NCBI GenBank assembly: GCA_963693365.1
Contig: CAVNZM010000003.1
Location: forward strand, 5,584,499-5,648,498
Direction of reading: 5' to 3'
Length of the DNA: 64,000 nt
Origin: Amoebidium appalachense
Taxonomy: Eukaryota; Protista; Ichthyosporea
This document shows, piece by piece, positions 58-28,849 of the stretch. Positions within the stretch are counted from its first letter, which is position 1, and every line of letters begins with the position of its first letter. Under the pieces are notes generated by a model, which did no database searches, was not told where the DNA came from, and worked only from the letters and a program-made list of their open reading frames with translations. The translations under genes were made by a program, and so were the position numbers.

Positions 58-200
58 CATGCTAACACCATCCCATCAAACCAACCCCCATCTAGCTCAT
101 GCTAACACCATCCCATCAAACCAACCCCCATCTAGCTCATGCTAACACCATCCCATCAAACCAACCCCCATCTAGCTCATGCTAACACCACCCCCATCAA
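58..200. repeat. 40-bp tandem repeat, about 3.5 copies
   Basis: gctaacaccatcccatcaaaccaacccccatctagctcat at 61, 101 and 141, partial copy at 181. Confidence 0.95.
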
Positions 201-224
201 CCCCCCCCCCCCCCCCCTCAGCCC

Positions 225-3863: not shown

Positions 3864-4041
3864 ACCCGGGTCCAGTCCATATCTGCCACCCATCCGGGCC
3901 TGGGGGGCTGGGGGTGGCTGGGGGTGGCCGGGGGTGGCTGGGGGGGGCTCCTGTGTCCCCCCAGCGCACGTGCCTCGCCCGCCTCCTGGTCCTTCCGTGC
4001 CCCACTTGCCACTCCCAGCCCCCCAAGCCCCGGGCGCAGTG

Positions 4042-4704: not shown

Positions 4705-4894
4705 ATAAGCACAAAGAAAAAAAAAAACATCAAGCCCAAGCGAGCCGCCGGTGAGCCACCGTGCCTCCCCGTCCTCCCCGGCCCCATGCTTAGTGTGCCA
4801 CCCCCAGCCACCCCCAGCCCCCCATGCCCCGCCGCGGTAGCTTTGAAAGCTGTTTTCAGACTAAGTGCAAGACCTGCTTGCTCGTCTCTGACGT

Positions 4895-5365: not shown

Positions 5366-5510
5366 GTTTCACTGTAAACTCTGGATAAAAAAAAATATTA
5401 ACCATCTGGACTGATCGGGGGTTCTCTGATGTCGATTATCGCAACCCCCAAAACACCCTATCCTCCAATCAAATGGCTCCGTTTTTTGACCTCCCCTTAG
5501 CTCAAACCCT

Positions 5511-5672
5511 CTCCCGACCTCCCGATTCTCCCGATAAAATAACCTTATATAGAAGCAGTAAGAAATCAATTAGAAAAACTGCAAAGTTACGTGACTTTTA
5601 ACCAATCATTATCTCCCGATATCTCCCGATGTTGGATTTCGATCGGGAGATCGATCTGGAGATATCGGGAGA
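5511..5672. repeat. Iteron-like CTCCCGA cluster, direct and inverted, with a 15-bp stem
   Basis: ctcccga three times at 5511-5534. tctcccgatatctcc (5612-5626) pairs with ggagatatcgggaga (5658-5672). Confidence 0.8.
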
Positions 5673-5677
5673 ATTGT

Positions 5678-7204
5678 TCAAGCCTTAGCAATGGCTCTTG
5701 GGCATAATATATAGCAATCTGCCTTCGCGCTGGTACCGGTTGGGGGGTGGTATGGCCATCTGCAGATGTTTGCTTCCAGTGTAGTCTTCGGCTTGCCCAG
5801 AATTTTCCTGATAGCCATCCCAAAAGTCCGGTTGCTTGGCAGTTTTGTGTCTCGGGCATTGATCTTGTGCCAAGCTTGGTACAGCTGAAACAGGCCTGTA
5901 GGGGTAACAGCACAGCCGCTGTAAATGAAGTCAAACTCCTCACAGCCATTTGTGTGAGAGATGAGGTCCTTGAGAAATTGAGCCTCGTCGCTCCGGCTAA
6001 TCGATTTGATGTTCATCTTTGTGTCGTTATCCATAGGCCTGGGCATTGTTTGGGGGATGTCTGGCATGTTCATGAAGTCGTGGTAAATTGCTGCCAATAC
6101 GTCAGGACGTCTGTGATACTCCACAAAGGCCTCGAAGTATTTGTGGTCACCAATCCGTTCCGGACTGACCCCAAAACATGCCCATCGCCTATCACTGGTC
6201 TCCACACGTACAGGCCAATCTTCGTTAGACAAGACAACATATCGCTCATACGAGTTGGTGTTGATTGCATCACATCCTTTCTTCTCCAACATCATGGTGG
6301 GCTGTGTAATGCGCGCCTTCATTAAGTTGTTAGTTTCGTGTGAACCACCCCACGTCACCTCGTCGCACAGCACAAGAAGTTTGTTTGCAATGTGCTGGTT
6401 GAACTTTCCCGACATGTGCTCCCGGTGAATGACATAGGCGTAGTACTCTGGTGAAAGGATGTCCATGATTGCCTGCCACCACACGTTCTTTCCGGTTCCT
6501 TGTTCAGATACAAACAGCAGTGCTGTACCTGGTTTGCTTCCAGGGTACTGAAACAGGTGGGCAACCCACATCCGCAGATAACTGTACTCGTCTTCCCGGT
6601 TGTTGCACAGAACCCTTCTGGCATGCTCGTGGAACGAGCTGGTCAGGTCTTGACGCAGACAGTACTCTGGGTCAAAATTGAAACGGAGTCCTCGATAGAT
6701 ATTGTATGGACGATAGACCGAATCGGTATTGTCTGGCTTTCGTTTTCCGGTTTTGGGGTCAGGATCAGCTGGGTCAAAGATGATCTTGGTGTAGATGGGG
6801 ATTGCGGTTGTTTTTAAGATTTCTGTCCCATTAATTGGAGGTTGGGGCTTCCATTGTTTTCCAACCTTCATGTTTGGCTGCCGAAATGAAAAGAGTGAAA
6901 GTGTTGCATAGATTTCCTGCCTGCTGACGATCTTTGCAACATGCTGTTTAATCTCATGGTCAAATGTTTTCAGGACAAATAGAGTTGTCCCGCTGATGTG
7001 TGCAACATTGGCGCCTATGAATTCCTCCACCTCCTCTCTCGCCCACTCTCTGAATTCGCAGGTCGCTGGGTTCATCATCAGCCCCTTATAGGCATCAGCC
7101 CCGAGATACTCAAATGCTTCAAAGCGCTCTTTGCTTCTCTTTCTGATACGCTCTTGATCGATGCCAAACATTGTCTCTTGTCCAGTTTGTTGGTGTGTCT
7201 GCAT
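5678..7204 (-). CDS. D5-like superfamily 3 helicase (primase-helicase C-terminal module)
   Basis: Walker A SEQGTGKN, Walker B LVLCDEV, motif C VVLSN, DRR arginine finger and a C-terminal winged-helix. No primase catalytic domain recognised. Confidence 0.9.
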   Translation of the reverse strand: MQTHQQTGQETMFGIDQERIRKRSKERFEAFEYLGADAYKGLMMNPATCEFREWAREEVEEFIGANVAHISGTTLFVLKTFDHEIKQHVAKIVSRQEIYATLSLFSFRQPNMKVGKQWKPQPPINGTEILKTTAIPIYTKIIFDPADPDPKTGKRKPDNTDSVYRPYNIYRGLRFNFDPEYCLRQDLTSSFHEHARRVLCNNREDEYSYLRMWVAHLFQYPGSKPGTALLFVSEQGTGKNVWWQAIMDILSPEYYAYVIHREHMSGKFNQHIANKLLVLCDEVTWGGSHETNNLMKARITQPTMMLEKKGCDAINTNSYERYVVLSNEDWPVRVETSDRRWACFGVSPERIGDHKYFEAFVEYHRRPDVLAAIYHDFMNMPDIPQTMPRPMDNDTKMNIKSISRSDEAQFLKDLISHTNGCEEFDFIYSGCAVTPTGLFQLYQAWHKINARDTKLPSNRTFGMAIRKILGKPKTTLEANICRWPYHPPTGTSAKADCYILCPRAIAKA

Positions 7205-7309
7205 TATTAGTATTGCTGAGAAAATATTTACGCAGGGACACTGCTGGAAAATACTGAATTTTCTGCCTTTTATACCCTTGGGGTTGGGGCTGCCGGGTCC
7301 AGAAAACTC

Positions 7310-7918
7310 TCAATTTTTCGATGCGTCGCCCTGGAAAATGTTGAACGTCCGGCTATGGGTAGACGTGTAACGCGGGTTGCGAACGCCAGTCTCGGGATCG
7401 GGGTCGTTGCGGTCGAAGACGATGCCACCGTGGTAAACGACCATATGACTGCTGTCCAAGTGCCACGATCCCTTGTATATCTTTATCTTCTTGCCTGTCG
7501 GGTTGTATTTGAACTTGTACTTGGACAGCATGTCGGCCACATTCTTCTTCGACTTGATCTCGAAGACGAATCTCCCATCCTTGAAACGCTTGAAGATGTA
7601 CGCACCGTCCGGGTGGGAATATGCCACCAGAGTACGGCAGAACGTATGAATCTGCTCCTCCGTCCACTCGTGTTGCTCAACGATGTCCGCGTCCAACCAG
7701 TTGTTGCGAGTGCCTGTTGTCCTCTCAAACTCCTCGTATGCTGCAAGCTTGAGCTGCTCGTTCTCGGACATACCCGTTGCTATCTTCATGTACAGATCTT
7801 CCATGTTGTCCGTTGTATATATGGTTAGATAATATCTGACGGGTGTCGCCTTGTGTTTGGGGTATTTATATCGGCTCGGATGCTGAACCCACCAGCTCGG
7901 GGTGCGCGGCTCTGACAT
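7310..7918 (-). CDS. Paralog of the N-terminal region of the adjacent D5-like helicase, lacking the ATPase
   Basis: IVFDRNDPDPETGVRNP...RTFNIFQG aligns with IIFDPADPDPKTGKRKP...RPYNIYRG of the helicase. The true start may be a downstream Met. Confidence 0.75.
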   Translation of the reverse strand: MSEPRTPSWWVQHPSRYKYPKHKATPVRYYLTIYTTDNMEDLYMKIATGMSENEQLKLAAYEEFERTTGTRNNWLDADIVEQHEWTEEQIHTFCRTLVAYSHPDGAYIFKRFKDGRFVFEIKSKKNVADMLSKYKFKYNPTGKKIKIYKGSWHLDSSHMVVYHGGIVFDRNDPDPETGVRNPRYTSTHSRTFNIFQGDASKN

Positions 7919-8303
7919 GGCAGTTGAGCGCAGCCGACCGGTTGAACGCAGATGTACAGCCCACAGACGGACACCTGAGGGTGTTCCGCACAGGCTGTTT
8001 TGGCGTCTTGTTTTCCTTGTGGACTAAGCGCCGGTGCCACCACAGTGCGGCAGGGTACGGGAAGTCGGCCGGGCACGTGTCACAGACGTATGGCCGCTCA
8101 CCGGTATGCATTCGCACATGCAGCTTCATGTAATCGCTGCGGGTAAAGGTAGCAAAGCAGCCTTCATGGGGGCACGTGTAAGGGCGTTTCTCGGAGTGTG
8201 TTGCGGCACGGTGTCTTTTCATGTTTGCGTTTGTGGTGAACGTTTGGGCACAGTCGGTGCATGGAAATACTCTCTTGTGTGGGGGTCTGCATGGTTCAGC
8301 CAT
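7866..8303 (-). CDS. C2H2 zinc-finger protein, four fingers
   Basis: CTDC..HRAATH, CPHEGC..HVRMHTGERPY, CDTC..HRRLVH, CPSVGC..HVRAAH. Confidence 0.88.
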   Translation of the reverse strand: MAEPCRPPHKRVFPCTDCAQTFTTNANMKRHRAATHSEKRPYTCPHEGCFATFTRSDYMKLHVRMHTGERPYVCDTCPADFPYPAALWWHRRLVHKENKTPKQPVRNTLRCPSVGCTSAFNRSAALNCHVRAAHPELVGSASEPI

Positions 8304-8351
8304 TGCTAAAGAAAGGGTAGAAAATGAATGTGGCCCCCCCCCCCCCCCCCC

Positions 8352-8606
8352 CTACCACCTGTACACCAGCACGCCGGCCAGCAGCACGAGCAGCACCATG
8401 CATGCAAGCGCTATGCCCCTCCACATCGAAGCCCTCTTGAGCTGTGCATCATGGTCGTCCAATGAAGTGCCCATGTAGAGCATGAAGCGCGTGCTGTTGT
8501 CGATGGTCAGGTGGTACTCGTGCGGGTCGGCGGCAATGTCATCCCTGCGCACCCACGAGTTACTCGGGTTGTCAAATCTCAGGTTTGCAATGTTCGGAGA
8601 AGTCAT
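8352..8606 (-). CDS. Small tail-anchored membrane protein
   Basis: ATG at 8606 (MTSPN); C-terminal hydrophobic helix IALACMVLLVLLAGVLVY. Confidence 0.5.
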   Translation of the reverse strand: MTSPNIANLRFDNPSNSWVRRDDIAADPHEYHLTIDNSTRFMLYMGTSLDDHDAQLKRASMWRGIALACMVLLVLLAGVLVYRW

Positions 8607-8686
8607 ACCTTCCGAAGAGATAGTTTGGAGCGCCCCCTCCCCAGCAACTCGGGGAGCACACACAGAGATTATGCATCGCAGTGCTA

Positions 8687-9058
8687 ATGGAACCTAAAAA
8701 CCGCTGGGACGTAGGGCGCGCCAAGACGGAGGACGCACTGACGAGGTACATGGACAGGGTGTGCTCGGGTGAGGATCCGGAAGGAACATGGTGGTTCACC
8801 ACCATGGCCCCGGGCGGCGCAACCACCGAGGACCTGAGCACAGCACTTGAAGATTGGGGTGAGCGCTGGCTTGACTATTTTTTCAAAGAGGTCGGCCACG
8901 TGGTGGAGGCAGCAGGGCTGCCGCTGCGCGAGGGTGTCTTTGACAGAGCCTACGGGCGCAACCGCAACCAGGAGTTCGAGGGGGTGGGTGCGGACCTTGA
9001 TGAGTGGAACGAGGGGACCCCCTGGAGCAACGCGGGCAACGTGGGGCATGCCTTATAG
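8687..9058 (+). CDS. Hypothetical acidic, Trp-rich protein
   Basis: Non-repetitive ORF with coding-like GC3 bias; no family recognised. Confidence 0.55.
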   Translation: MEPKNRWDVGRAKTEDALTRYMDRVCSGEDPEGTWWFTTMAPGGATTEDLSTALEDWGERWLDYFFKEVGHVVEAAGLPLREGVFDRAYGRNRNQEFEGVGADLDEWNEGTPWSNAGNVGHAL

Positions 9059-9738
9059 CAAAAAATCTTAAACAGTTTCGGGGTGAATATATAATGTAAA
9101 TCCAACGATCCAAATAATGGTTTTGCAACTTCACATTGGGGTGAATATACAATGTAAATCCAACAACAGAAATAAATATATCAATATGCTTGGCGCTTTA
9201 CTCGCACACTCTGTCGGAGCACCAGTCTCCGGTATTTTGGCATGAACTCGTCTGCATACACGTACTTCCTTGCACGTCTGTGACCCCTCTTTTTGGACCG
9301 ACCTCTTCGTTTTGACATGACGTTCACCCAAAAATTGTGGGCATCCGACTCCAAAACCTCTCCTAGTGAAACCACTTTCTCCGCTTACACCCTGCGGCAC
9401 ATTGGTTGCTGGTCCACGCGCCCTCCTCGAGCTCGAGGGACACCTTGCGCCACCCGGATTCTGCGCGCTTGATCTCGCACGCCACCACAATGTCTCCCGG
9501 TCGCACACCTGCGGTCCACATGCTTGTGCAACAGCGCACGCTCAGCACCTCACACTCCGATTCGGGCCCACGTACACACACGCCGAAACACGCAAGCGCG
9601 CACTCGTGGTCATGCAGCGCCTCGAGAACTGGCACCTTGCGAATGAGTGTGCGCCGACGCAGGCGGGGACTCTGGAGGGTATAAAAGCGTGTGTCTGACA
9701 CGGGGAGCTGCCAGTCTGAATCTGCACCAGAACCGACC

Positions 9739-10257
9739 ATGGCTTTTGAGCAGGACCTGAAGCTATTTGTCAATCGGCTGTCGCTGCTTGTATCCAACAT
9801 GACGTTCGACTCGAACGGCGCCGGGAGGGTGGCAAGCCGGCCGCTACAGCTCCACGCAAGACTCGGCAAGGGCGACACGATGCTGTCGGACACGATGCTG
9901 CCGCTGCAGTCGGTGGAAACGTCGAACAGGACTGGACTCAACCACCTGGTGTTTTCGACGTGTCCACTGGAGGGGGCCGGGGATGCGGTGACCATCGACC
10001 TGGATTGGGGCAAGTCGTTTCGGCTGACCTGGGAGCGCTGGGACACCACGCTGTCGCTGCTGCCACCGAGGGATCCGACGGAGGAGGAGGGCATGAGCGA
10101 GGGACGAGCTGTCCCCATGGAGGCAAAGAGAAAACGAACAACCCTTCTGCGAATCGACTTTTTGAAGGACTTCCTTTGGCATGACATGGGGTGCGACATT
10201 CTGTCGCTGCAGTTATATGAATCAGTACAGAAAAATAGGCGGCAGTGTAGAGAATAA
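9739..10257 (+). CDS. Hypothetical protein
   Basis: accATGg start context, TATAAAAG at 9680-9687, coding-like codon bias. Confidence 0.6.
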   Translation: MAFEQDLKLFVNRLSLLVSNMTFDSNGAGRVASRPLQLHARLGKGDTMLSDTMLPLQSVETSNRTGLNHLVFSTCPLEGAGDAVTIDLDWGKSFRLTWERWDTTLSLLPPRDPTEEEGMSEGRAVPMEAKRKRTTLLRIDFLKDFLWHDMGCDILSLQLYESVQKNRRQCRE

Positions 10258-10649
10258 TGCAGGTATCACGCAGTGCGTGTGTGTGTGCGACTGCCGGTGA
10301 AGGTGCAACTGTGCCCTGGATGGCGCAGCATGTGAATATAAGGAGGCCCACAGCCAGGGAGTCATCGGAGCACATGTCTGGTGTGCGTTGGGATTATGGT
10401 CGATAATATTGTTACAAATATGTGGGTTTGGAGTGTCCATTAGGGAGCCAGCCCTACACTCAGGATATATATATATATAAGTATAAGCAGATACACGTCA
10501 CCTGAAACTTGTTGCACTGAGTAACAATAATTATCTTACTCAAGGTACTGATTCTGAGTAACACAGACAAGTGTCCCACACTAGATGTTACTCGACCAAA
10601 TATGGTAAAGGTTTCCTTTTTAGGTATAAATATATGCAATTGTCATATA

Positions 10650-10786
10650 GTGAGTAGGATGAGTAGGATGAGTACGTACTCATCTACTGTGGGCTACGGG
10701 TATACCTAAATCTCAATCCAAAAGGAAATTGGAACACCCGGGGGGAGACCAGATGAGTAGGTACTCAAGCTACTCATCCTACTCAC
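10650..10786. repeat. GATGAGTA iteron-like cluster with 17-bp inverted repeat and 18-bp palindrome
   Basis: gtgagtaggatgagtag (10650-10666) pairs with ctactcatcctactcac (10770-10786); gatgagtacgtactcatc at 10667-10684. Confidence 0.85.
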
Positions 10787-10795
10787 CCCATCACT

Positions 10796-11357
10796 GCCTA
10801 TAGGCATGCTCCGTGTGCAGGGCACTGATTTCTACCCTCTTCTGGTTGGTGCCAAGAGGCAGTGCCCTACACGTGTGGTGTCTAAACAGCCTATAGGCAT
10901 GCTCCGTGTGCAGGGCACTGATTTCTACCCTCTTCTGGTTGGTGCCAAGAGGCAGTGCCCTACACGTGTGGTGTCAAACAGCCATAGGCATGCCCGTGTG
11001 CAGGGCACTGATCCCCCGGGGGCAAGAGGCAGTGCCCTACACGTGGGTGCAAACAGCCTAAGGCATGCTCCGTGTGCAGGGCACTGATTTCTACCCTCTT
11101 CTGGTTGGTGCCAAGAGGCAGTGCCCTACACGTGTGGTGTCTAAACAGCCTATAGGCATGCTCCGTGTGCAGGGCACTGATTTCTACCCTCTTCTGGTTG
11201 GTGCCAAGAGGCAGTGCCCTACACGTGTGGTGTCTAAACAGCCTATAGGCATGCTCCGTGTGCAGGGCACTAATTTGTTGTGCCTTCCTTTTTTGGTTAG
11301 ATCTATACCCGGCCAATGGTTAGCAGCCACGGGTTTGTTTTCATCAAGCTTGGACGT
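10796..11357 (+). repeat. Left inverted-repeat arm: about five 93-bp tandem units (one internally deleted) plus about 86 bp of unique flank
   Basis: Period 93 (taggcatgctcc at 10801 and 10894); reverse complement of 16634 onward. Confidence 0.95.
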
Positions 11358-11415
11358 TAATACATACTAAGTAACAGAATGAAATCACTCGCAAGTGTTA
11401 TCCCTCATGATTGTA

Positions 11416-11772
11416 TCAATCCGTTTCATCCGGAGTCTTAGCGGACTGGCCCAGCCGTATGAGACAGGCCCGTAGAAAGTCCTTTTGCTTCTTCAGCTTG
11501 TCGTTTTCCAGCTGCAGCTCTTGGTTCTCCACCACCAAATTCTTGTTCTCTTCGCACACCTTGTTGCGCTCCTCTTGCAGGCCCTTGATCACCTCCCGCT
11601 GGTTCTTGTTCATTGTGCGCAGCGCGTCGTTGTCCTTGTCCATGTCGTTGTTCAACTCCCTCAGCTGCTGGATCAGCCCGTGCAGCCCCTCGTTGGCCTC
11701 CTTCAGCATCTTGTTGGTCTCTTGCAGCTGCTCGGTGTGTGCATCTTGGCGCTGTGTATCTGTTTCATCCAT
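11416..11772 (-). CDS. Coiled-coil protein
   Basis: Continuous heptad pattern (N..L..EN..L) over about 90 aa. Confidence 0.7.
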   Translation of the reverse strand: MDETDTQRQDAHTEQLQETNKMLKEANEGLHGLIQQLRELNNDMDKDNDALRTMNKNQREVIKGLQEERNKVCEENKNLVVENQELQLENDKLKKQKDFLRACLIRLGQSAKTPDETD

Positions 11773-12631
11773 TGTGTCGTTTGCAGCCGGTTGGGCAGGA
11801 GGTGTTTAGTTTTTATCCACGAAGCAAAGCAGTGTGAACAAAAAAAACGTCCCTCTTATTTTTACGAAGCAAAAGTGTGACCCAAAAAAAAAACGTTCCT
11901 CTTACACAATGCAAAATAAAGCAAAATCCTATGATGCGCAAACACACCGTGAACTAAAAAAACTCGCCACTGATTATTTACAAAGTAAAGCAGTGTGAAC
12001 AAAAAAAAAAAGCGCTCCTTACACAGTGCAAAATAAAACACACACACACACACACCAAGCCATTTGTATCCAGCTCGGACCCCTTTTTGTGCGCACACTT
12101 CTGGTTGGTGTATAAGTATTGGATCCACGTGAGCGCGAGTTTCCTAAGTGCTGCTCAAAAAGTGACATGTTGTTCCCAGCAGGCAGTGCACCGATTCGCT
12201 ATCAGTTGACATCGTGTTCAAGCAGTCAGCACCATGTGATTGTGTACTTTTCCTGACCAATTTTTGTATCCCTGATAGACAGAATAATGCTCGTAATTGT
12301 TGGGAAGCATATTCGTGTTTTTTTAGGAGTTGCTACATCAAAATACATTGTGTTCAAACACTGACGGCCAAGTTGCAAAGATCGGATTACAATCCAATCT
12401 GTCAAATGACAATTCTCAAGTCAAAACATGCTCTTGTTGATCCAATCAGAATTCATCAATCAGTCAGCAGATTTGGTTGAGCCCCAACTTATCGGATACA
12501 CCAAGATGCCCAAATGACAATTAGCCAATCAGATATTCACGCGATCTCTAGATCCAATCAAGCGTCGCGGCTGGGGTATATCCAACCAATCTAATGCAAT
12601 AAAGCATCTGATGCCAAAGCCGGGCACGGCA

Positions 12632-12639
12632 TATAAAAG
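12632..12639 (+). promoter_or_regulatory. TATA box (GGCATATAAAAGC context) preceded by several CCAAT motifs
   Basis: About 90 nt upstream of ATG 12724; the same 13-mer lies on the minus strand upstream of the ORF starting at 16420. Confidence 0.6.
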
Positions 12640-12723
12640 CCCATACTCTCTTCAATCCACACACCTTTTCCATGTTAGCTAGCTTCTCCCTTGGCACACA
12701 ACGTACATCCAACTGTCACGAAA

Positions 12724-13470
12724 ATGAGTTCTAACATCAAAGATCTAGAAAGGCGCGCTAAAAAAATAGAGACAAGACTCAAGACTTTGGAGGAGGATGC
12801 AAAGGTCCTGCGGGACACCCAGACCCGTTTCGCGTGCGCCCTTGCTAGGCACGCCCGCATGGCTTTAAGCAAGCGCACCACTACAGCAGCAACCGTGGCA
12901 CCCCCAGCGCTGACCGTGGCACCCCCAGCGCTGACCGTGGCACCCCCAGCGCTGACCGTGGCACCCCCTGTCCTGGCAGCGGCACCTGCACTTCGTGCTG
13001 GCGAGCATGGCAGCTCCTATCCCGTGGACTTGGCCCCCCTGCCCCTGCAGCGCTCACGTTTGCACATCACACAGGGGTCCAAGACACGGGAGAAACCACG
13101 AAGACAGCAGAAGAGGACACGAGAGGAAGTCAGAAGCTCTGGGTCGGAGGAGGAGCACCATTCTCCAGTGCCTCCTTGGTTCAACTGGAAGACCTTCACA
13201 CAGGGGTCCAAGACACGGGAGAAACCACGAAGACAGCAGAAGAGGACACGAGAGGAAGTCAAAAGCTCTGGGTCGGAGGTACAGGAGGAAGTGCCTCCTT
13301 GGTTCAAGACCTTGCTATGGGGACCTGAGGAGTACTCGTCTTCTGAGGAGCACTCGGAAGACGAGTCCAAGACCTTGACACGGGGACAGCAGAAAAGGGC
13401 ACGAGCCAGTGAAGCCAGCAGCTCTGGGGCGTCTTCCGAGTCTTCAGACGGAGATATCAACTGGCCTTGA
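12724..13470 (+). CDS. Hypothetical protein: N-terminal coiled coil, TVAPPAL repeats and a duplicated basic block
   Basis: aaaATG at 12724, upstream TATA, 21-bp repeats at 12893-12968, TQGSKTREKPRRQQKRTREEV twice. Confidence 0.62.
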   Translation: MSSNIKDLERRAKKIETRLKTLEEDAKVLRDTQTRFACALARHARMALSKRTTTAATVAPPALTVAPPALTVAPPALTVAPPVLAAAPALRAGEHGSSYPVDLAPLPLQRSRLHITQGSKTREKPRRQQKRTREEVRSSGSEEEHHSPVPPWFNWKTFTQGSKTREKPRRQQKRTREEVKSSGSEVQEEVPPWFKTLLWGPEEYSSSEEHSEDESKTLTRGQQKRARASEASSSGASSESSDGDINWP

Positions 13471-13549
13471 CACGGTGAAAAAAGGGGCCGCTATTAGAGA
13501 GTAGCCTCAGGCTATTCTAGTGCTTGTGTGCAGGTGTACTTAACATTGA

Positions 13550-14830
13550 GTGTACTTAGGGTGGGGCTGTGCAGACGTGTACTTAAAGGGTGGGGCTGTG
13601 CAGACGTGTACTTAGGATGGTGCAGACGTGTACTTAAAGGGTGGGGCTGTGCAGACGTGTACTTAAAGGGTGGGGCTGTGCAGACGTGTACTTAGGATGG
13701 TGTAGAGGTACTTAGGGTGGTGCAGAGTGTACTTAGGGTGGTGCAGAGTGTACTTAGGGTGGGGCTGTGCAGAGTGTACTTAGGGTGGTGCAGACGTGTA
13801 CTTAGGGTGGGGCTGTGCAGAGTGTACTTAGGGTGGTGCAGACGTGTACTTAGGGTGGTGCAGAGTGTACTTAGGGTGGGGCTGTGCAGACGTGTACTTA
13901 GGGTGGTGCAGACGTGTACTTAGGGTGGTGCAGAGGTGTACTTAGGGTGGTGCAGACGTGTACTTAGGGTGGGGCTGTGCAGAGGTGTACTTAGGGTGGT
14001 GCAGACGTGTACTTAGGGTGGTTCAGAGTGTACTTAGGGTGGGGCTGTGCAGAGGTGTACTTAGGGTGGGGCTGTGCAGAGTGTACTTAGGGTGGTGCAG
14101 ACGTGTACTTAGGGTGGTGCAGAGGTGTACTTAGGGCTGTGCAGAGGTGTACTTAGGGTGGTGCAGAGTGTACTTAGGGTGGTGCAGAGGTGTACTTAGG
14201 GGGGGCTGTGCAGAGGTGTACTTAGGGTGGTGCAGAGGTGTACTTAGGGCTGTGCAGAGGTGTACTTAGGGTGGTGCAGAGTGTACTTAGGGTGGTGCAG
14301 AGGTGTACTTAGGGCTGTGCAGAGGTGTACTTAGGGTGGTGCAGAGGTGTACTTAGGGTGGTGCAGAGGTGTACTTAGGGTGGTGCAGACGTGTACTTAG
14401 GGTGGTGCAGAGTGTACTTAGGGTGGTGCAGAGGTGTACTTAGGGCTGTGCAGAGGTGTACTTAGGGTGGTGCAGAGGTGTACTTAGGGTGGTGCAGAGG
14501 TGTACTTAGGGTGGTGCAGACGTGTACTTAGGGTGGTGCAGAGGTGTACTTAGGGTGGTGCAGACGTGTACTTAGGGTGGGGCTGTGCACCACAGTGTAC
14601 TTAGGGTGGTGCAGACGTGTACTTAGGGTGGGGCTGTGCACCACAGTGTACTTAGGGTGGTGCAGACGTGTACTTAGGGTGGGGCTGTGCACCACAGTGT
14701 ACTTAGGGTGGTGCAGACGTGTACTTAGGGTGGGGCTGTGCACCACAGTGTACTTAGGGTGGTGCAGACGTGTACTTAGGGTGGGGCTGTGCACCACAGT
14801 GTACTTAGGGTGGTGCAGAGTGTACTTAGG
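13550..14830 (+). repeat. Telomere-like minisatellite: 21-29-bp units each built on GTGTAC-TTAGGG-TGG
   Basis: Basic unit gtgtacttagggtggtgcaga with variants; a regular 51-bp higher-order repeat, five copies, at about 14545-14815. Confidence 0.93.
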
Positions 14831-15235
14831 TGGGTGTCTTGTGGTGAAAGTAAAGTTTATGGCATACAGGCAGATGTGTGCTTTAAGCCTTAGGGAACTG
14901 TGGGCAGACATGTCAACACTTGGGCCTATGGGTAGACGTGTACACACTTAGTGTATTTGTTTGTGTCTCTCATGGTTATTTTATAGCATGAAGCACTGCA
15001 AAAAATGGTGTATGTTTCCGTGGTCCACGTACACAGAATCCTTTAATATGAACACAAGTGATTGTATAGAAAAAGAGTACGTACGTACATGATAGTCTAG
15101 TCAGATTACAAAGAACAAATCAACTTGGACCGAGTATATTCAAATACAAACTAAAAGAGAAAAGAAACAAATAAATCAAGACCGATCAATTCAAATACAA
15201 ATCAAAAGAGAATGCCACTTAGTCGACCAATCAAA

Positions 15236-16420
15236 TCAGTACATCTTATGCTCATACTGGTCAAACTCTTCCTGGTCAAGATCAATGAGGGGAATTTCTT
15301 CAGTTTGTTTATGTTTGGGTTCAGGTTTGCGGTCATACACGACCGACTCACGATCAGACGCAGATTCGTCATCTGTCATATCATCGAGTACCTGATTTGC
15401 CCGTCGTTTGAGCCGCTTGGGGTTGAATGCTTCATCTGAGTCCCAATCACATTGATCATGGACGCGTTTGGCGGGTGAGGCAGGTGAAGAGACAGACTCA
15501 TTACCACCTGTGTATGCCTTCAAGTTCTTCTCCCGTCGCAGAATCTTCCTTCGGATGCTTTTTATGGTGTTTTGGGCTGCACACACAGCAGCAATGGCCA
15601 GGCCCTCCGCCATTTCATCTTCAGCCGCCTTTGCCTCTTTGACACGCTCTCGAGCATTCTGGAGCTCCCCCCTCACACTAGTTAGCTGTGCATCGAGGTC
15701 CATCGTATGGTCATGCAACGAAGTCTCAGGTGTTTTGGTGTGCTTGGGCCTGGGCTTAGCGGCAGGGGTGGTCTTGGCAGGAGTGGTCTTGGTGGTAGGG
15801 GTGGTCTTGGCAGGAGTGGTCTTGGTGGTAGGGGTGGTCTTGGCAGGAGTGGTCTTGGTGGTAGGGGTGGTCTTGGCAGGAGTGGTCTTTGCGGCAGGGG
15901 TGGGGGCAGTCACAGGGGTGGTCTTTGCGACAGGGGTGGGGGCAGTCACAGGGGTGGTCTTTGCGGCAGGGGTGGGGGCAGTCACAGGGGCGGTCTTTGC
16001 GACAGGGGTGGGGGCAGTCACAGTGGTGGTGTTGGCGGCAGGGGTGGGGTCAGCAGTCACAGTGGTGGTGTTGGCGGCAATGGTAGTCTTGCGAGGGCCA
16101 CTGAAAATGTAGTTTTCATAGGCCACCTGGCCATCCCGACGGGGTGCTGCAGCCCGTTGCAGGCTGGCAAGCTCGGCCTGCAGGGTCTTGATCTGCTCTT
16201 CGGCTGCCCTCAGTCGTGCCTCTACATCAGAGGGCTGGGGTTGGGGGGGTCGGGGGGTACGCGCAGCATTCTCATTGGTCACTTGACTGCGGAGGCTGGT
16301 GAGGTCGGTGCGGAGGCTGGTGACGTCGGTGTGCAGGGCCGTTAAGCGAGACGAATGGTCCGTGTACAGAAAATCAAAGCGCTTCTGCAGCTGTTGAAGC
16401 TCCTCTTTCCAAGAATCCAT
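15236..16420 (-). CDS. Coiled-coil protein with a central Thr/Pro/Ala/Lys repeat linker and basic NLS-like C-terminus
   Basis: 394-aa ORF, PAKTT/TPVTAP repeats, PKRLKRR, TATA at 16516-16523. Confidence 0.75.
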   Translation of the reverse strand: MDSWKEELQQLQKRFDFLYTDHSSRLTALHTDVTSLRTDLTSLRSQVTNENAARTPRPPQPQPSDVEARLRAAEEQIKTLQAELASLQRAAAPRRDGQVAYENYIFSGPRKTTIAANTTTVTADPTPAANTTTVTAPTPVAKTAPVTAPTPAAKTTPVTAPTPVAKTTPVTAPTPAAKTTPAKTTPTTKTTPAKTTPTTKTTPAKTTPTTKTTPAKTTPAAKPRPKHTKTPETSLHDHTMDLDAQLTSVRGELQNARERVKEAKAAEDEMAEGLAIAAVCAAQNTIKSIRRKILRREKNLKAYTGGNESVSSPASPAKRVHDQCDWDSDEAFNPKRLKRRANQVLDDMTDDESASDRESVVYDRKPEPKHKQTEEIPLIDLDQEEFDQYEHKMY

Positions 16421-16633
16421 GTTTCGTGTGAGTGTTTGAAAAGCAAGTTTGTTGTGTGTCGCCTTTTACTATTGAGTGTCAGTGTTGAAATGAGTGAATG
16501 TGACCGTGTGTGCTGCTTTTATATGCCACGGTACAAAGCAGCTTACAGCAATGGTGCCAAGGCTCAATGGGATAGATCTCTCCAATCAACGGTCATTGTC
16601 ACTCAAACGGCCTTGATGGTTGGCAAAGTATCA

Positions 16634-18792
16634 CGTCTAAGCTTGATGAAAACAAACCCGTGGCTGCTAACCATTGGCCGGGTATAGATCTAACCAAAAA
16701 AGGAAGGCACAACAAATTGGTGCCTGCACACGGAGCATGCCTATAGGCTGTTTAGACACCACACGTGTAGGGCGCTGCCTCTTGGCACCAACCAGAAGAG
16801 GGTAGAAATTGGTGCCTGCACACGGAGCATGCCTATAGGCTGTTTAGACACCACACGTGTAGGGCGCTGCCTCTTGGCACCAACCAGAAGAGGGTAGAAA
16901 TTGGTGCCTGCACACGGAGCATGCCTATAGGCTGTTTAGACACCACACGTGTAGGGCGCTGCCTCTTGGCACCAACCAGAAGAGGGTAGAAATTGGTGCC
17001 TGCACACGGAGCATGCCTATAGGCTGTTTAGACACCACACGTGTAGGGCACTGCCTCTTGGCACCAACCAGAAGAGGGTAGAAATTGGTGCCTGCACACG
17101 GAGCATGCCTATAGGCTGTTTAGACACCACACGTGTAGGGCGCTGCCTCTTGGCACCAACCAGAAGAGGGTAGAAATTGGTGCCTGCACACGGAGCATGC
17201 CTATAGGCTGTTTAGACACCACACGTGTAGGGCGCTGCCTCTTGGCACCAACCAGAAGAGGGTAGAAATTGGTGCCTGCACACGGAGCATGCCTATAGGC
17301 TGTTTAGACACCACACGTGTAGGGCGCTGCCTCTTGGCACCAACCAGAAGAGGGTAGAAATTGGTGCCTGCACACGGAGCATGCCTATAGGCTGTTTAGA
17401 CACCACACGTGTAGGGCGCTGCCTCTTGGCACCAACCAGAAGAGGGTAGAAATTGGTGCCTGCACACGGAGCATGCCTATAGGCTGTTTAGACACCACAC
17501 GTGTAGGGCGCTGCCTCTTGGCACCAACCAGAAGAGGGTAGAAATTGGTGCCTGCACACGGAGCATGCCTATAGGCTGTTTAGACACCACACGTGTAGGG
17601 CGCTGCCTCTTGGCACCAACCAGAAGAGGGTAGAAATTGGTGCCTGCACACGGAGCATGCCTATAGGCTGTTTAGACACCACACGTGTAGGGCGCTGCCT
17701 CTTGGCACCAACCAGAAGAGGGTAGAAATTGGTGCCTGCACACGGAGCATGCCTATAGGCTGTTTAGACACCACACGTGTAGGGCGCTGCCTCTTGGCAC
17801 CAACCAGAAGAGGGTAGAAATTGGTGCCTGCACACGGAGCATGCCTATAGGCTGTTTAGACACCACACGTGTAGGGCGCTGCCTCTTGGCACCAACCAGA
17901 AGAGGGTAGAAATTGGTGCCTGCACACGGAGCATGCCTATAGGCTGTTTAGACACCACACGTGTAGGGCGCTGCCTCTTGGCACCAACCAGAAGAGGGTA
18001 GAAATGGGTGCCTGCACACGGAGCATGCCTATAGGCTGTTTAGACACCACACGTGTAGGGCGCTGCCTCTTGGCACCAACCAGAAGAGGGTAGAAATTGG
18101 TGCCTGCACACGGAGCATGCCTATAGGCTGTTTAGACACCACACGTGTAGGGCGCTGCCTCTTGGCACCAACCAGAAGAGGGTAGAAATGGGTGCCTGCA
18201 CACGGAGCATGCCTATAGGCTGTTTAGACACCACACGTGTAGGGCGCTGCCTCTTGGCACCAACCAGAAGAGGGTAGAAATGGGTGCCTGCACACGGAGC
18301 ATGCCTATAGGCTGTTTAGACACCACACGTGTAGGGCGCTGCCTCTTGGCACCAACCAGAAGAGGGTAGAAATTGGTGCCTGCACACGGAGCATGCCTAT
18401 AGGCTGTTTAGACACCACACGTGTAGGGCGCTGCCTCTTGGCACCAACCAGAAGAGGGTAGAAATTGGTGCCTGCACACGGAGCATGCCTATAGGCTGTT
18501 TAGACACCACACGTGTAGGGCGCTGCCTCTTGGCACCAACCAGAAGAGGGTAGAAATTGGTGCCTGCACACGGAGCATGCCTATAGGCTGTTTAGACACC
18601 ACACGTGTAGGGCGCTGCCTCTTGGCACCAACCAGAAGAGGGTAGAAATTGGTGCCTGCACACGGAGCATGCCTATAGGCTGTTTAGACACCACACGTGT
18701 AGGGCGCTGCCTCTTGGCACCAACCAGAAGAGGGTAGAAATTGGTGCCTGCACACGGAGCATGCCTATAGGCTGTTTAGACACCACACGTGT
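16634..18792 (-). repeat. Right inverted-repeat arm: about 86 bp of unique flank plus about 22.5 near-identical 92-bp tandem units
   Basis: Period 92 (tgcctgcaca at 16721 and 16813); units contain the palindromes gcctataggc and acacgtgt. Confidence 0.97.
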
Positions 18793-19447
18793 TGTGGCTT
18801 CTGCCTTTATCACCCACACACCCACACGTGCCAACATACACTATCCTCCCCGTGAGTGGCATGCCAGTCTCCCCAGCCCCCCTGCTCCCCAGCCCCCCAG
18901 TCCCCCCAGCTCCCCTGCTCCCCTGCTCCCCTGCCCCCCTGCTCCCCTGCCACATGCACACCCACACACTGGGTGGCCCCCCTGCCCCCCTGCCTGCCGG
19001 AACCAGGCCCCCCAGTGGTGGCATTCCAACACGTGCATGCTAGAAGATCGTGCTACATGAACAAATGGTCTTAACTCAGCCATACATGGGGGGGCATGGT
19101 TCCCCCACTCTCCCCAGCCTCCTGTGCACGTGTGCCTCCCCCGACCCCCTGCCTCCCCTGCACGTGTGCCCCCCCTCCTGCCGGAACCACGGCCCCCAGT
19201 GGTGGCAGCCAGTGCCTTACATGCTAATCTATTCTATGGCCACATGGCCAGATGGCCAGATTGTTTTGACTTCAGGTGGATCCCCCTCCCCCTGCTCACA
19301 GACTGAATTTGATCTGGCCATCTGGCCATCTGGGTATAAACCGTTTTCTGTTCTAATATTGGAGAACTGTCGATAGTGATAGAAAATGTCATTGGAAGAA
19401 CAATCGGGAAATCCCGCGGTGTGACAACCAATCAGAATGAAGCAATA

Positions 19448-19835
19448 TTGGGATATTCGGGTTGGTTGTAAGGTTTTCAGGTCGGGCCGAAGGCCCTAAC
19501 GGGCCGCAGGCCCGCTTATTGGGCCGCTAGGCCCTAGGCCGCTAGGCCGCTAGGCCCGGGGCCCCGGGGACCGGGGGCCCGACCCGGCCCGCGAGCCACC
19601 CCCGGCCCGGCCCGCGGGGGCCCGGCGCCGGGGTTAGCAGTCACTGCTAACCCCGGCGCCGGGCCCCGCGGGCCGGGCCGGGGGTGGCTCGCGGGCCGGG
19701 TCGGGCCCCCGGTCCCCGGGGCCCCGGGCCTAGCGGCCTAGCGGCCTAGGGCCTAGCGGCCCAATAAGCGGGCCTGCGGCCCGTTAGGGCCTTCGGCCCG
19801 ACCTGAAAACCTTACAACCAACCCGAATATCCCAA
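19448..19835. repeat. 388-bp GC-rich near-perfect palindrome (hairpin/cruciform)
   Basis: Arms 19448-19641 and 19643-19835 centred on ttagcagt-c-actgctaa; the only difference seen is one G/C indel in a homopolymer. Confidence 0.97.
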
Positions 19836-20322
19836 CAGGGCCTCCTATGAGGCTTCCGGCGGTCGACCGCCGGATAAAATCCCAGCGCCGGATTGTTTTG
19901 ATTGGTCTAGCATTTTATCCAGCGGCCCTGTGATTGGTCAAGCCGGAACCCTTGGCCGCGAAGCAAATACGCCAAGCACAGCCTAGGGTGACAGTAAACA
20001 ACTCAGCACACGAGCGACAAACCACAACAAAAAACAAAAATGAACCCGTCTCAACCTGTTACCTTACTTGACGGTACCCATATCGACATTTCACGCGCAA
20101 GTGTTTAGGGTTGTTCCAAACATGAGTTCAAAGGATGCGAGTAACCCTGTCAGTGACGATGCTTCAAACAAACGCACACAATCCGAAAACATAGAATTAG
20201 ACCCTAAAGCTGCGGAAGACGATGGTGAAGATGTGAGTGAACAGAAGAAAAAACGTATTCGAACCAAATGGAATTGTGCAGGGCGGGTGTTGTGTCGGGA
20301 AGTGAGGGGAAGGGGGTGGGCC

Positions 20323-20721
20323 CTACGGACTTGCGACCGGCAAAGTCACAGAGTTCTGGGAGGGTGTGGGGTAGCTCAGGCGACATAGGGCGACGCACAG
20401 CATTTCGAATCCCTTCACCTTGTACCTACGCCCACGTTCGTATGGTATAGTGAACTCATCCGCCATGTTCAACTCCACAAACAGAGTTTCGAGCTGTGTG
20501 CGTGTCATGCGAAAATCACGTACTATTTGATGGGGTGTGAGCTTGGATATGTCAAAGCGTTCCTGTGATGTGATGGGCCGCTCAACAATTCTCATGTTTG
20601 CTAACTGCCATGCACAAAGGTACTCTTCGGCTCCATCTTCGCTGTCCAACTCGTACGCAACAAGCAACCAAAACAAGTTTTCCTCTTGCCGCCTGCTAAC
20701 TGCAGAGCGGCTGTTTGGCAT
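20323..20721 (-). pseudogene. Truncated PIF/Harbinger/ISL2EU-like (DDE_Tnp_4 family) transposase N-terminus
   Basis: DFRMTRTQLETL...FEMLCVALCRLSYP is the pre-HTH signature of this family; the DDE core is absent. Confidence 0.7.
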
Positions 20722-21157
20722 GTTAAAAACCTAGTCAGGTAGATGGCGGGCCTTGTTAAGTACGATGTGTTTCACCAACAGGTTCTATTCACGGTTCAAA
20801 CATAACGAAACTAGGCGTCCTCGGTTCTGTGTGCCTGTGTACCATGACCACGTGGAAGCATGACAAGGCCAAACTAACACGAAGAAAATCGCAGTCTCGG
20901 AGCAACAAGTATGCGTTTTGTGGGGGGGAAAAAAAACACTCGAACCATGCTTTTGGCTGTTTCCCGCCAATTCTTATTATTATGCGCAAACTTAGACCAA
21001 TCATAGCCCTTATTGTTTTAAACCATCTTACGGCTCTGGCTATCGGAGAATCAATCCGGCACTGCTGTAAAATGATTTTGCCGCTATCGCAATGCCATAG
21101 CCGGATCAATCCGGCTATCGCTATCGCTATCGCTATCGCCGAACTGTAAAAACACTC

Positions 21158-21642
21158 TCGCTATTCACTTCGTCATCTGACACGTCCAACAGAAACAATC
21201 TGAAATCTGGATCTCCCGTATCTTTCGCAACATAGGCGATCATCTGCTCAAATGTTTGCCCAACCGTCTGTCTCATTCAATCGCTTGGCACTTGTGCGCA
21301 TTGAAATATTTTCATCATCCTCTGGCGGATTAATATAACTCTTCAACTCTTTCTTCAGAGTACTAACACCTTTCCTGCCACCAGGGATCCGAATTTTCCA
21401 CAAAGCCTGAACATGCAAATTACCCGCACTTTTCCCCCGCTCCAAAGTGTGTAAACCCCAACGCAGTAGCTCCCTTCACAGCAAATTGCCTCGCAAAATT
21501 ACACATGATCATACCACACTGCGGGCACATTCCCACCCGCATTGGTTATGTTAAGGCTTATGCTCGCAACTGCATATTCACTAATACCACAAGGAGGCTG
21601 TACAACTTTCTTCTGCTTTGCTCTGCTTCGCTTCGGCGGCAT
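21158..21642 (-). pseudogene. Replitron-type HUH endonuclease, frameshifted
   Basis: Across three frameshifts: MPPKRSRAKQKK (NLS), SISLNITNAGGNV (motif 1), LERGKSAGNLHVQAL (motif 2), GQTFEQMIAYVAKDTGDPDF (motif 3, YxxK). Confidence 0.72.
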
Positions 21643-22429
21643 TGTAAAAACTGAGCGTCAAATATCGTGTTGATGCATTATATACTACCCCCAGATCTAC
21701 CATTAAATATATACCCGCCAAAAGAATTGAATGGTTTTCATCCAATCATACAACTTTAAACCACTACCCAATGGTATCGCTCGCTTGTGCAAGTTAGAGG
21801 TGTAATTAACGCTCATTAGCTAACTTTCACAACCGGGCCCTCCGACTGGTTCACTATCACGGCTCACGAGGCCACTTCTGCAACTTCCACGACCGAAGAA
21901 TCTGATTGGTCCCCTGCTAACGAAGTCATTAACCCAACTTTCACAACCGTCAATTCGTCAATTAAATCTCCCCAGACCAACATTTCACTAACCACCTTAC
22001 GTAAGGCTTACGTAAGCCCCTACGCAAGCCTCCCCCCAAACCTCTATATCGTGGTCTGGCCCCCCCCCGACCCCACCGCCTCACGTAACCCCGGCCCCGG
22101 GCCAGCCAACCAAAAGGTCCAGTTGTGCAAAACAGCCGAGTTGGCCGCCCCCCCCCTACGGCGGGCGCCCCCTACGGGTACGGTAAGTATCACGGCCATC
22201 TACAAAAAGAAACACCGGTGTTTCTAGATGGTCGTGGAAAGTATGTATGTAAGGTATGTTATAGGCCGCAGGGACTGCGCATGCCAGGGAGACAGTGTAA
22301 TTACAACATTAAGAAAAAACGCGGCTTATGGCTGGGCCAATCAAGGCGAAGCGATTGCTTTTTTGTTCGACTGACGTCATCGAGGTGCGAGCAAACTGTT
22401 TCGGAGCGTAAAAAAACTTTGTCAGGATA

Positions 22430-22830
22430 TCGATGAGACCCCCCAAATGCGAGCGAAGCGAGCCAGGTGCATAACACTGGTGGCGGACCGGGCCACTGGT
22501 GATGGGACTGCGGTTCGCGGCGCTGATCCTTCAAGGGCCCCGGATTGGCAAGGGCCGTCCTCTGTATTATAATCCCCCCCCGCAAAATGCGAGTGAAGCG
22601 AGCCTACCGTAAAAAAAATTACGAACTTGCCCCCTAAAATGCGAGCGAAGCGAGCCTACACGTAAAAAGATAGTCAGGATATCGATGCCCCCCAAAATGC
22701 GAGCGAAGCGAGCCAACATGTACATGTATAAAATAGCAAACGGCCTAGCGGGCCCCCCGGGTCGGGCCGGCTGCACGTGGCCCGTTGCGGGCGAAGCGAG
22801 CCTAGCAAGACTGCGGCCCGCTGCGATAGC
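22430..22830. repeat. Dispersed GCGAGCGAAGCGAGCC motif cluster with a GC-rich end, probable transposon subterminus
   Basis: aaatgcgag(c/t)gaagcgagcc at about 22445, 22585, 22637 and 22695, partial at about 22790; gtcaggatatcgatg twice. Confidence 0.7.
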
Positions 22831-23244
22831 TATTCTACTCTATTTGTGAATTTTATCGTTAGCCAATCGGAAGTACCTTGCCCGTTTGCGCTATCATTCT
22901 GAGCAGAAAAATCTGGATCCTCTGCAGTTTTGTTTTGTTTTTCACGGAACATATCAAAGAGCACCATGGCAATGCAATATGTAGCAGCCTTGAATATTGA
23001 ATGGTAATGTTGAGGACACACGTACGCTGTGACACAAAATAAAGACTGAATAGATCATACAAACAGAATTCTAGTGTAACCCAAAAAACCACTCGTGGAG
23101 AGAATCAATCATTCAGCAAACTTTCAACCAAAAACAAAGTTGCATACGGTTTCTTTGTTTCCCCACTACTCTCTCACTGACTAAGAGAACAAATCACTGT
23201 CATAGTATAGCTAATTCACGGGCGTCTGCCTTTGGTCGTTCAAA

Positions 23245-28849
<5,605 letters not shown>

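Follow-up and report, generated by a model that had tools for sequence, protein, structure and literature searches.

How did two tandem arrays of nearly the same unit come to stand in mirror image around three genes in the genome of Amoebidium appalachense? Virus-derived giant repeats of protist genomes have so far been catalogued by their genes, and no account of their cis-acting DNA was found in the literature searched. A plain reading of the window, the whole stretch of 64,000 nucleotides that was analysed, yields several candidate cis elements, namely palindromic arrays, three short hairpins resembling iterons, the borders of cassettes and what may be a terminal repeat. We give about even chances to the explanation that the mirrored arrays, which lie in a virus-derived multi-copy block, stem from one inverted duplication of a regulatory array native to the region upstream of ORF3.

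The mirrored arms and their units

BLASTN pairs 10793-11357 with 17211-16633 on the opposite strand. From left to right, a 93-bp array and about 86 bp of flank (10796-11357) are mirrored by about 86 bp of flank and a 92-bp array (16633-18792), and the DNA between them contains a 22-bp minisatellite and three orphan ORFs that lack introns (Table 1). Repeat calls, BLASTN and ORF coordinates confirm this geometry, which had been proposed in a sequence-only reading of the locus. That reading had also made one arm the reverse complement of the other. The arms are indeed inverted, with a length of more than 500 bp and an identity of about 92-96%, and the inner flanks match at 85 of 86 bases, but the arms are not identical: left and right units differ by one indel and three substitutions, and the outer ends of the arrays are out of register by about 20 bp. 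The right flank begins at 16633, one base before the 16634 given earlier, because the 85/86 reverse-complement match spans 16633-16718. The first 5 bases of the inner flank also fit a right-type unit.

Table 1. Features of the module and its surroundings (positions in the window)
Feature	Position	Strand	Basis
Fic	2158-2955		Pfam
Patatin	2952-3863		Pfam
C2H2 zinc fingers	4895-5365, 7866-8303		Pfam
DUF5906/D5-like helicase	5678-7204		Pfam
Short inverted repeat outside left array, 17-bp arms of 10-bp tandem units	10650-10786
Left array, 93-bp units	10796-11271 (period 93 called over 10796-11276, 5.4 copies)	+	Tandem-repeat call
Left inner flank, 86 bp, CCAAT box inside	11272-11357	+	BLASTN
ORF1, 118 aa, acidic coiled-coil orphan	11416-11772	-	ORF list, Pfam, PHROGs
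A-rich DNA of about 90 bp duplicated in direct orientation (78%), between divergent ORF1 and ORF2	11834-12040	+
TATA-box 13-mer, TATA 92 bp upstream of ORF2 ATG	12628-12640	+
ORF2, orphan of 248 aa with a short N-terminal helix, Pro/Ala repeats, a duplicated basic segment and an acidic/Ser tail	12724-13470	+
G-rich minisatellite, 22-bp units (21-29 bp variants), one TTAGGG each	13598-14830	+
ORF3, orphan of 394 aa with two blocks predicted to be helical coiled coil, disordered Thr/Pro/Ala/Lys repeats between them, and an acidic tail	15236-16420	-
TATA-box 13-mer, TATA 103 bp upstream of ORF3 ATG	16515-16527	-
Right inner flank, 86 bp, CCAAT box inside, about 105 bp upstream of ORF3 TATA box	16633-16718	-	BLASTN
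Right array, 92-bp units	16719-18792 (period 92 called over 16714-18792, 22.6 copies, 99% matches)	-
Degenerate remnant of the CACGTGTGG part of the unit, just beyond right array	18793-18830	-
Short inverted repeat outside right array, 18-bp arms of 8-bp tandem units	19244-19333
Context: GC-rich palindrome, 389 bp, 193-bp arms, different DNA each side, 650 bp beyond right array	19448-19835

Each array is uniform internally and distinct from its partner at the four fixed sites, and these differences extend into the innermost partial units. All 22 full units of the right array are right-type at the indel and at two substitutions, and a single one carries the left-type base at the fourth diagnostic site; 18 of the remainder are identical and 3 have one variant. 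The left unit contains a 9-bp inverted repeat with a 32-bp spacer (fold z -3.9). The right unit contains a different 8-bp inverted repeat (z -1.1), which the three clustered changes brought about. In left units 2-4 there are 20 deletions but not one substitution, and 17 of the 20 lost bases are T (binomial P about 1e-7). Because deletions with this bias look like consensus error, which is probably what degraded these units, the left copy number of 5.4 is unreliable and probably a consensus artefact.

Outside the arrays, the arms share no common terminus: the outer flanks give an inverted score of 29 against a shuffle mean of 32, and sensitive BLASTN of 1-10795 against 18793-23400 returned only 18-31-bp matches (E of at least 0.15). 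No target-site duplication was found, 8-10 bp ones included, and the best candidates, of 5-6 bp, lie away from the array ends. Exact patterns from the array (24-mer) and the flank (21-mer) had no match in viral_contigs, and Rfam had none in 9000-23500. One match of an array 20-mer in metagenome_contigs was dismissed as chance because, by eye, it lies inside an unrelated bacterial coding region.

The enclosed genes and their virus-derived setting

As the sequence-only reading had it, ORF2 and ORF3 point toward the middle array, the three ORFs contain no transposase or recombinase domain (0 of 3 in Pfam and PHROGs), and they are orphans. Specifically, ORF1 had no meaningful match in Pfam, PHROGs, an exact look-up or tblastn against 82 loci, and ORF2 had no relative at E<=0.01 among 7995 candidates. 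ORF3 had no viral_contigs relative, no usable Atlas match and no fold-search match at E<=0.001; its first 120 residues matched three of 1.84 billion representatives, all of them repetitive coiled-coil-like proteins. The description of all three products as basic coiled-coil proteins holds in part. Coiled coils are indicated for ORF1 and ORF3 by sub-threshold Pfam matches and by the ORF3 model, but ORF2 shows, by eye, no more than a short run of heptads at its N-terminus. Similarly, the computed pI is 9.9 for ORF2 and 9.1 for ORF3, the latter with a net charge of only +6, but 4.9 for the acidic ORF1. No DNA-binding fold was found in the module proteins by Pfam, or in ORF3 by its model and fold search. 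A shuffle score of 80 (95th percentile, 64) was suggestive of paralogy between ORF2 and ORF3, which was set aside as unshown because BLASTP gave E=0.41. Among the runs listed for 11280-13500 none is of RNA, which has no bearing on expression.

The 13-mer GGCATATAAAAGC, regarded earlier as a promoter element common to ORF2 and ORF3, occurs exactly twice in the 64 kb (12628+ and 16527-), and none of 300 shuffles gave a match longer than 10 between the two upstream regions. Its core TATAAAAG is a TATA box that is also present outside the module, where it precedes both the helicase gene (7274-) and ORF 9739 (9680+). CCAATC occurs 15 times in the non-coding DNA of the element, where 3.6 are expected. 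GTGCC, common to arrays and spacers, is weakly enriched (rank 23 of 511), and the GC-rich spacers align poorly as a family, with 44% column identity.

A viral setting had also been proposed, and the left flank supports it with its D5-like helicase, Fic, patatin and C2H2 zinc finger genes. These intronless virus-like genes adjoin intron-rich, holozoan-like host DNA, and one of them, patatin, is tied to a giant virus, since its best homolog (43% identical) lies on a giant-virus genome contig beside PCNA and mRNA capping enzyme. The closest homologs of the helicase (33-58%) are on short contigs, and the best 80 of its 349 viral_contigs relatives, all 24-35% identical, are uninformative. Fic, patatin and the 4042-4704 ORF had no direct viral_contigs relatives, and the Atlas matches of ORF 9739 were all under 0.9.

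None of the genes that would assign the element to a class, for a capsid, polymerase, integrase or recombinase, turned up in the 19 kb of it that the window covers. Likewise, no recombinase was found among 15 ORFs tested from 1-16420 of an element that extends past the window. As for giant endogenous viral elements of the Nucleocytoviricota, whose core genes include capsid, PolB, A32 ATPase and VLTF3, the part of the element inside the window shows the D5-like helicase only. The intron-poor, repetitive genes in a tandem cluster agree with Plavaka giant repeats, and the palindrome centre had no match to the Plavaka termini quoted in the available part of the literature. Of the Polinton/adintovirus set, protein-primed PolB, integrase and capsid were absent from the window, beyond which the element continues.

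The module sits inside a multi-copy, cassette-variable block of virus-derived genes. Read contigs from four of four runs carry many alternative bases across 1100-10790, along with joints at which entire gene cassettes are passed over; 19 of the 22 runs listed for 11280-13500 carry half or more of its words. Contig depth should not be taken for copy number. A 28-bp inverted repeat encloses one further gene of the block, and the short inverted repeats outside the two arrays are of like design and unrelated sequence. Set against a single inverted duplication, these features on both outer sides, with the 28-bp repeat, hint that inverted-repeat bracketing is a recurring design rather than an accident.

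Origin of the mirrored arms

A single inverted duplication could have produced the module in four steps. First, the palindromic 93-bp unit would have been amplified to an array beside the ORF3 promoter, leaving a degenerate remnant outside. The array's origin at this right-hand site is suggested because the remnant still sits outside the right array. Second, a staggered-break inversion or a template switch would have copied the array and 86 bp of promoter-side DNA, reversed, 5.3 kb away. Staggered breaks are a documented source of inverted duplications at inversion breakpoints (PMC1885836). Third, each array would have been homogenised separately, and the right one would have fixed a quasi-palindrome switch, which would account for three of the four differences between right and left. 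Finally, the arrays may act in cis as multi-site protein-binding platforms and, by analogy with baculovirus hrs, would have an enhancer or origin role; their binders are more plausibly the C2H2 zinc fingers of the element or host factors than the three coiled-coil proteins. An inverted duplication is supported by arms that are alike at the inner 86 bp and have nothing in common outside the arrays, as well as by the fixed array differences, the TATA/CCAAT promoters and the virus-like gene neighbourhood. The near-identity of the inner flank is also expected of a young foldback arm or of occasional exchange between the arms.

A foldback-type origin, also suggested by the sequence-only reading, is unlikely but carries some weight. 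The module would then be a non-autonomous DNA transposon nested in the giant repeat, with three genes aboard and its transposase encoded elsewhere. Foldback arms combine a tandem outer domain of variable copy number with a unique inner domain around a variable middle (PMC4079207). This shape is present here and the module contains no transposase, but the external flanking domain, the common terminus and the target-site duplication are absent, the ends are out of register, and the middle consists of intact genes with their own promoters, in the style of the genes beyond the arms.

There is a small chance that the giant repeat works as a cassette shuffler of viral descent in a eukaryote, with the 8-kb module as a cassette and the 92/93-bp palindromic units as recombination sites. 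If so, cassettes bracketed by inverted or GC-rich repeats would be gained, lost or flipped as units, and the module, with its three nuclear coiled-coil proteins, would be a satellite able to invert or be excised within a giant transposon-like element of an animal relative.

It is improbable that the module is simply an invertible cassette, whose three genes are flipped between two isomers by arm recombination, either homologous or site-specific at the palindromic units. Such recombination would suit the length and identity of the arms, the 9-bp arms around a 32-bp spacer in each left unit, the left-type base in one right unit, the cassette-scale rearrangement in the block, and the tyrosine recombinases that ichthyosporean giant repeats often encode (PMC11244446). 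However, frequent flipping should mix or equalise the arms. Instead, the arrays are internally uniform and differ at four fixed sites as far as the innermost partial units, which argues against frequent flipping and also against a read chimera. Moreover, no recombinase was found in the window, and a flip would not switch genes on or off because both promoters lie inside the segment.

The 389-bp palindrome may consist of two transposon ends set side by side, and would then show where the giant repeat stops on the right. We consider it quite improbable that the repeat is a giant TIR transposon ending near 19641, with the arrays as CACTA-like satellite subterminal repeats. The right arm of the palindrome can be read as starting CACTG, and there are precedents in the CAC..GTG termini reported for fungal EnSpm elements (PMC12730594) and in the satellite arrays near the 3' end of plant CACTA elements (PMC8978399). 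Nevertheless, the final G of such a terminus is missing from the left arm, no transposase was found, the window leaves out the element's other end, and the inverted left array is not explained by this reading alone. A giant TIR transposon is compatible with an inverted duplication and does not exclude it.

Very little credence is due to the proposal that the middle array directs telomere integration or tethering and that the coiled-coil proteins bind the arrays. Its 49 TTAGGG hexamers, one per 21-29-bp unit, and strong G skew count in favour, as do the Thr-Pro-Ala-Lys repeats of ORF3, which we take to resemble histone-H1-like tails. TTAGGG is, however, never tandem (TTAGGGTTAGGG occurs 0 times in the window), which does not bear out the telomere-like array of the sequence-only reading, and the hexamer has a 2.5% chance of arising in a shuffled unit of equal composition. 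The module also lies away from any contig or chromosome end, transposon and host DNA fill the 44 kb on its right side, ORF1 is acidic, and the proteins lack a DNA-binding fold in the searches above; little speaks for a genome-end or tethering role. What lies between the convergent genes is an ordinary minisatellite.

An assembly chimera, in which the inverted arm comes from a foldback read or a mis-join, is hardly credible: the left array has consensus damage and the multi-copy region is hard to assemble, but a read foldback would yield identical arms and no 5.3-kb unique middle, whereas these arms are told apart by one base in the flank and four fixed sites per unit, and the inner left part is present in runs of four studies.

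Should the module flip or move in one piece, an endogenous element of an animal relative would possess a system of programmed rearrangement. Should it be a static relic, it would be a clean case of independent concerted evolution in sister arrays 5 kb apart.

Comparison with known systems

In herpesviruses, a gene-bearing unique segment is invertible between inverted repeats that are near-identical, one of them terminal. Here, in contrast, the arms are diverged, internal and almost wholly composed of tandem units, and no herpesvirus gene was found. Baculovirus hrs have an enhancer or origin role. Like the arrays here, they consist of tandem imperfect-palindrome units in variable copies, and the genome of a large DNA virus bears them in more than one place (PMC4758234). 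However, this element is not a baculovirus and only two arrays were seen in it, inverted and sharing an 86-bp flank; the likeness is one of layout.

The foldback elements FB, Galileo and Tetris resemble the module in their tandem outer domain of unequal copies, unique inner domain and transposase-free middle (PMC4079207). They differ from it, in the available text of that source, in their external flanking domain, common terminus and target-site duplication, and the middle of the module holds three promoter-bearing ORFs.

The giant repeats and giant endogenous viral elements of Amoebidium are likewise multi-copy, intron-poor clusters of virus-related genes in an intron-rich holozoan genome, are invaded by transposons and polymorphic between isolates, and include a D5 primase/helicase comparable to the D5-like helicase here (PMC11244446). 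Unlike in those elements, capsid, VLTF3, PolB, tyrosine recombinase and Plavaka transposase were not found in this window. The available main text of that paper contains "inverted repeat", "tandem repeat" and "telomer" 0 times, and such a module is undescribed there.

In the inversion-breakpoint duplications described from Drosophila chromosomes (PMC1885836), as in the module, a short stretch stands at one end of a segment and again, reversed, at the other, and the similarity goes no further. The stretch duplicated here differs in that it includes a tandem array, which has grown since, and no un-inverted ancestral state was seen.

Inverted arrays and their common flank

The module at 10796-18792 is bounded by two tandem arrays, each with an 86-bp inner flank, placed in mirror orientation around three open reading frames (see table). 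This layout, described in the sequence-only reading, is confirmed by Tandem Repeats Finder and BLASTN and is far beyond chance. In a BLASTN comparison of 10000-20000 against the window, 10793-11357 aligned with 17211-16633 on the opposite strand, and the inner 86 bp (11272-11357 vs 16633-16718) agreed at 85 of 86 bases. Elsewhere in the window, the array unit and the flank find nothing beyond 12-13-bp matches. About 105 bp separate the right flank from the ORF3 TATA box downstream of it, and the left copy lies immediately downstream of ORF1.

Coordinates of features in the window
Feature	Position	Description	Basis
Left array	10796-11276	93-bp period, 5.4 copies	Tandem Repeats Finder
Middle array	13598-14830	22-bp period	Tandem Repeats Finder
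Right array	16714-18792	92-bp period, 22.6 copies	Tandem Repeats Finder
Short inverted repeats	5612-5672, 10650-10786, 19244-19333	exact 15-18-bp arms of 8-10-bp tandem units; mutually unrelated sequences	
Cassette-skipping contig joints	1819-4053, 7234-8336, 8372-9297, 8353-10465		run contigs vs window
SH3YL1/Ysc84-like gene	23246-28850	host gene	by eye
Leukotriene A4 hydrolase (LTA4H)	31991-38202	host gene	
Complex I 51-kDa subunit, start	63343-64000	host gene	by eye

The arms are sisters rather than twins. One indel and three substitutions separate the left unit from the right; 18 of the 22 full right units are identical, three have one common extra variant and one carries a left-type base at one site. 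In the left unit, the arms of a 9-bp inverted repeat stand 32 bp apart (fold z -3.9); in the right unit, three clustered changes give instead an exact 8-bp inverted repeat whose partner lies nearer (z -1.1). These changes are of the kind that a single quasi-palindrome template switch leaves, and the switch would later have swept through the array. The outer array ends are out of register by about 20 bp, a degenerate unit piece directly beyond the right array has no counterpart at the left one, and inverted similarity does not extend beyond the arrays (outer-flank score 29 vs a shuffle mean of 32). Because left units 2-4 have only deletions (20, with 0 substitutions), of which 17 removed T (P about 1e-7), we take them for errors in the consensus of an array that was collapsed or varies in length.

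Genes and minisatellite between the arms

All three ORFs are intronless, and their description as orphans holds within the searches run, ORF1 being searched least. The products had also been called basic; ORF2 and ORF3 are mildly so, but ORF1 is acidic (pI 4.9). A single-sequence structure prediction for ORF3 (mean pLDDT 57) contained long helices and disorder only. ORF2 and ORF3 have a common layout, but their sequence similarity is not significant. Upstream of both lies the proposed promoter 13-mer, which occurs exactly twice in the window; in 300 of 300 shuffles the longest match fell short of it. Its core, however, is a TATA box, and this box also stands upstream of two genes beyond the module.

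The middle array had been considered telomere-like. This is not borne out, as its 49 TTAGGG hexamers occur singly, one per unit, with no tandem pair; shuffling a unit while keeping its composition yields the hexamer in 2.5% of cases. The array is a minisatellite rather than a telomeric tract. An exact 17-bp match, borderline for chance, links its degenerate right edge (14926) to position 7353 in ORF 7310-7918.

The surrounding giant repeat

To the left of the module lie Fic, patatin, two C2H2 zinc-finger genes and a DUF5906/D5-like helicase. The best patatin homolog (43% identity) comes from a giant-virus genome contig, where its neighbours are PCNA and an mRNA capping enzyme, and the seven closest helicase homologs (33-58%) are all on short contigs. 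Over 1100-10790, contigs of all four sequencing runs carry many alternative bases, and summed contig depth shifts several-fold at about 4015 and 8230. Among those listed, at least eight contig joints fall here, several bypassing whole genes; the joint from 1819 to 4053 removes Fic and patatin. Relative cassette depth differs strongly between runs, and in X15 Fic and the greater part of patatin have a depth of about 20, vs 1100-1450 for 10172-10790. Contig depth is not copy number, but these observations fit a family of many copies in which the cassettes differ from sample to sample. At least half of the sampled words of 11280-13500 are present in 19 of 22 listed runs. At 10631, all four runs have A at full depth and the window has T, either a window error or a rare copy. 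The C-terminal part of ORF 7310-7918 (-), of 202 aa, looks by eye like the N-terminal region of the neighbouring helicase, and the ORF is possibly a partial tandem duplicate. A 40-bp tandem repeat of 3.5 copies (58-241) lies downstream of ORF 225-1088.

Three short inverted repeats with arms of at least 15 bp occur in 1-19440, vs one, microsatellite-derived, in 23200-64000. One is directly behind the helicase stop. They are candidate origins or transcript-end hairpins, the latter being a feature of mimiviruses. An exact 28-bp inverted repeat (3901-3928/4797-4824) lies in GC-rich spacers at which contig joints cluster. By eye, the N-terminus of the ORF between its arms (4042-4704) is PD-(D/E)xK nuclease-like, and its C-terminus gives a weak D5-like match.

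To the right, a 389-bp GC-rich palindrome (19448-19835; 193-bp arms, one indel, centre 19641-19643) has DNA on its left that differs from that on its right. It looks like two TIR elements meeting end to end, the right terminus of one against the left terminus of the next, and the giant repeat may truly finish here. Nested transposon remnants, recognized by eye, occupy 20122-22830, with a truncated ORF at 20122 (+), a fragment without a Pfam match that we take to be Harbinger-like (20323-20721, -) and four copies of a 12-20-bp motif (22445-22802). From about 23200 rightward, the DNA is microsatellite-rich and its host genes are rich in introns. For one LTA4H exon, the best LTA4H structures (human wherever labelled as such) give 150 bits and another pair, presumably yeast, gives 89; this points to a holozoan host without proving it. 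Two near-identical intronless genes for a secreted-looking, cysteine-rich 250-aa protein without a Pfam match (40582-41334, 48911-49663) flank a LINE-like element with RVT_1 (42313-46684).

Origin of the arms and comparison with known systems

We give roughly even chances to an origin in which a palindromic array would first have arisen upstream of ORF3, a single inverted copy of it would have been made together with the 86-bp flank, and each array would from then on have undergone concerted evolution by itself. By analogy with baculovirus hrs, which act as enhancers and origins, the arrays might be platforms to which proteins bind. PMC1885836 documents that staggered breaks can produce inverted duplications at the breakpoints of inversions.

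A foldback element is unlikely; the arm layout fits, but the termini and target-site duplication of such elements, as characterized in the cited part of PMC4079207, are absent, and the module offers no convincing duplication candidate. Cassette shuffling is rather improbable as well, but this reading stays alive because the inner flank is nearly identical between arms, one right unit has a left-type base, short inverted repeats of like design stand on both outer sides of the module, and the 28-bp inverted repeat brackets ORF 4042-4704; these results speak against a single inverted duplication. About as unlikely is an invertible cassette, against which stand the fixed differences between the arrays and the position of both promoters inside the segment. 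The arrays could, at a long shot, be subterminal satellite DNA in a giant TIR transposon whose end is the 389-bp palindrome (PMC12730594, PMC8978399), which is compatible with an inverted duplication. A telomere or tethering module is very unlikely, and an assembly chimera is the least probable of all.

The closest published setting is the giant repeats and endogenous giant viruses of the ichthyosporean Amoebidium (PMC11244446); the main text of that paper leaves inverted or tandem repeats unmentioned. Searches of open-licence literature, including passages of PMC6431247, turned up no account of endogenous giant viruses with arrays that are inverted or foldback-like. The parts of the module are all of known kinds; within that literature, they seem not to have been described together in a giant repeat of viral origin. 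The module arrays resemble the baculovirus hrs, as outlined in the cited portion of PMC4758234, in being composed of palindromic units of variable number.
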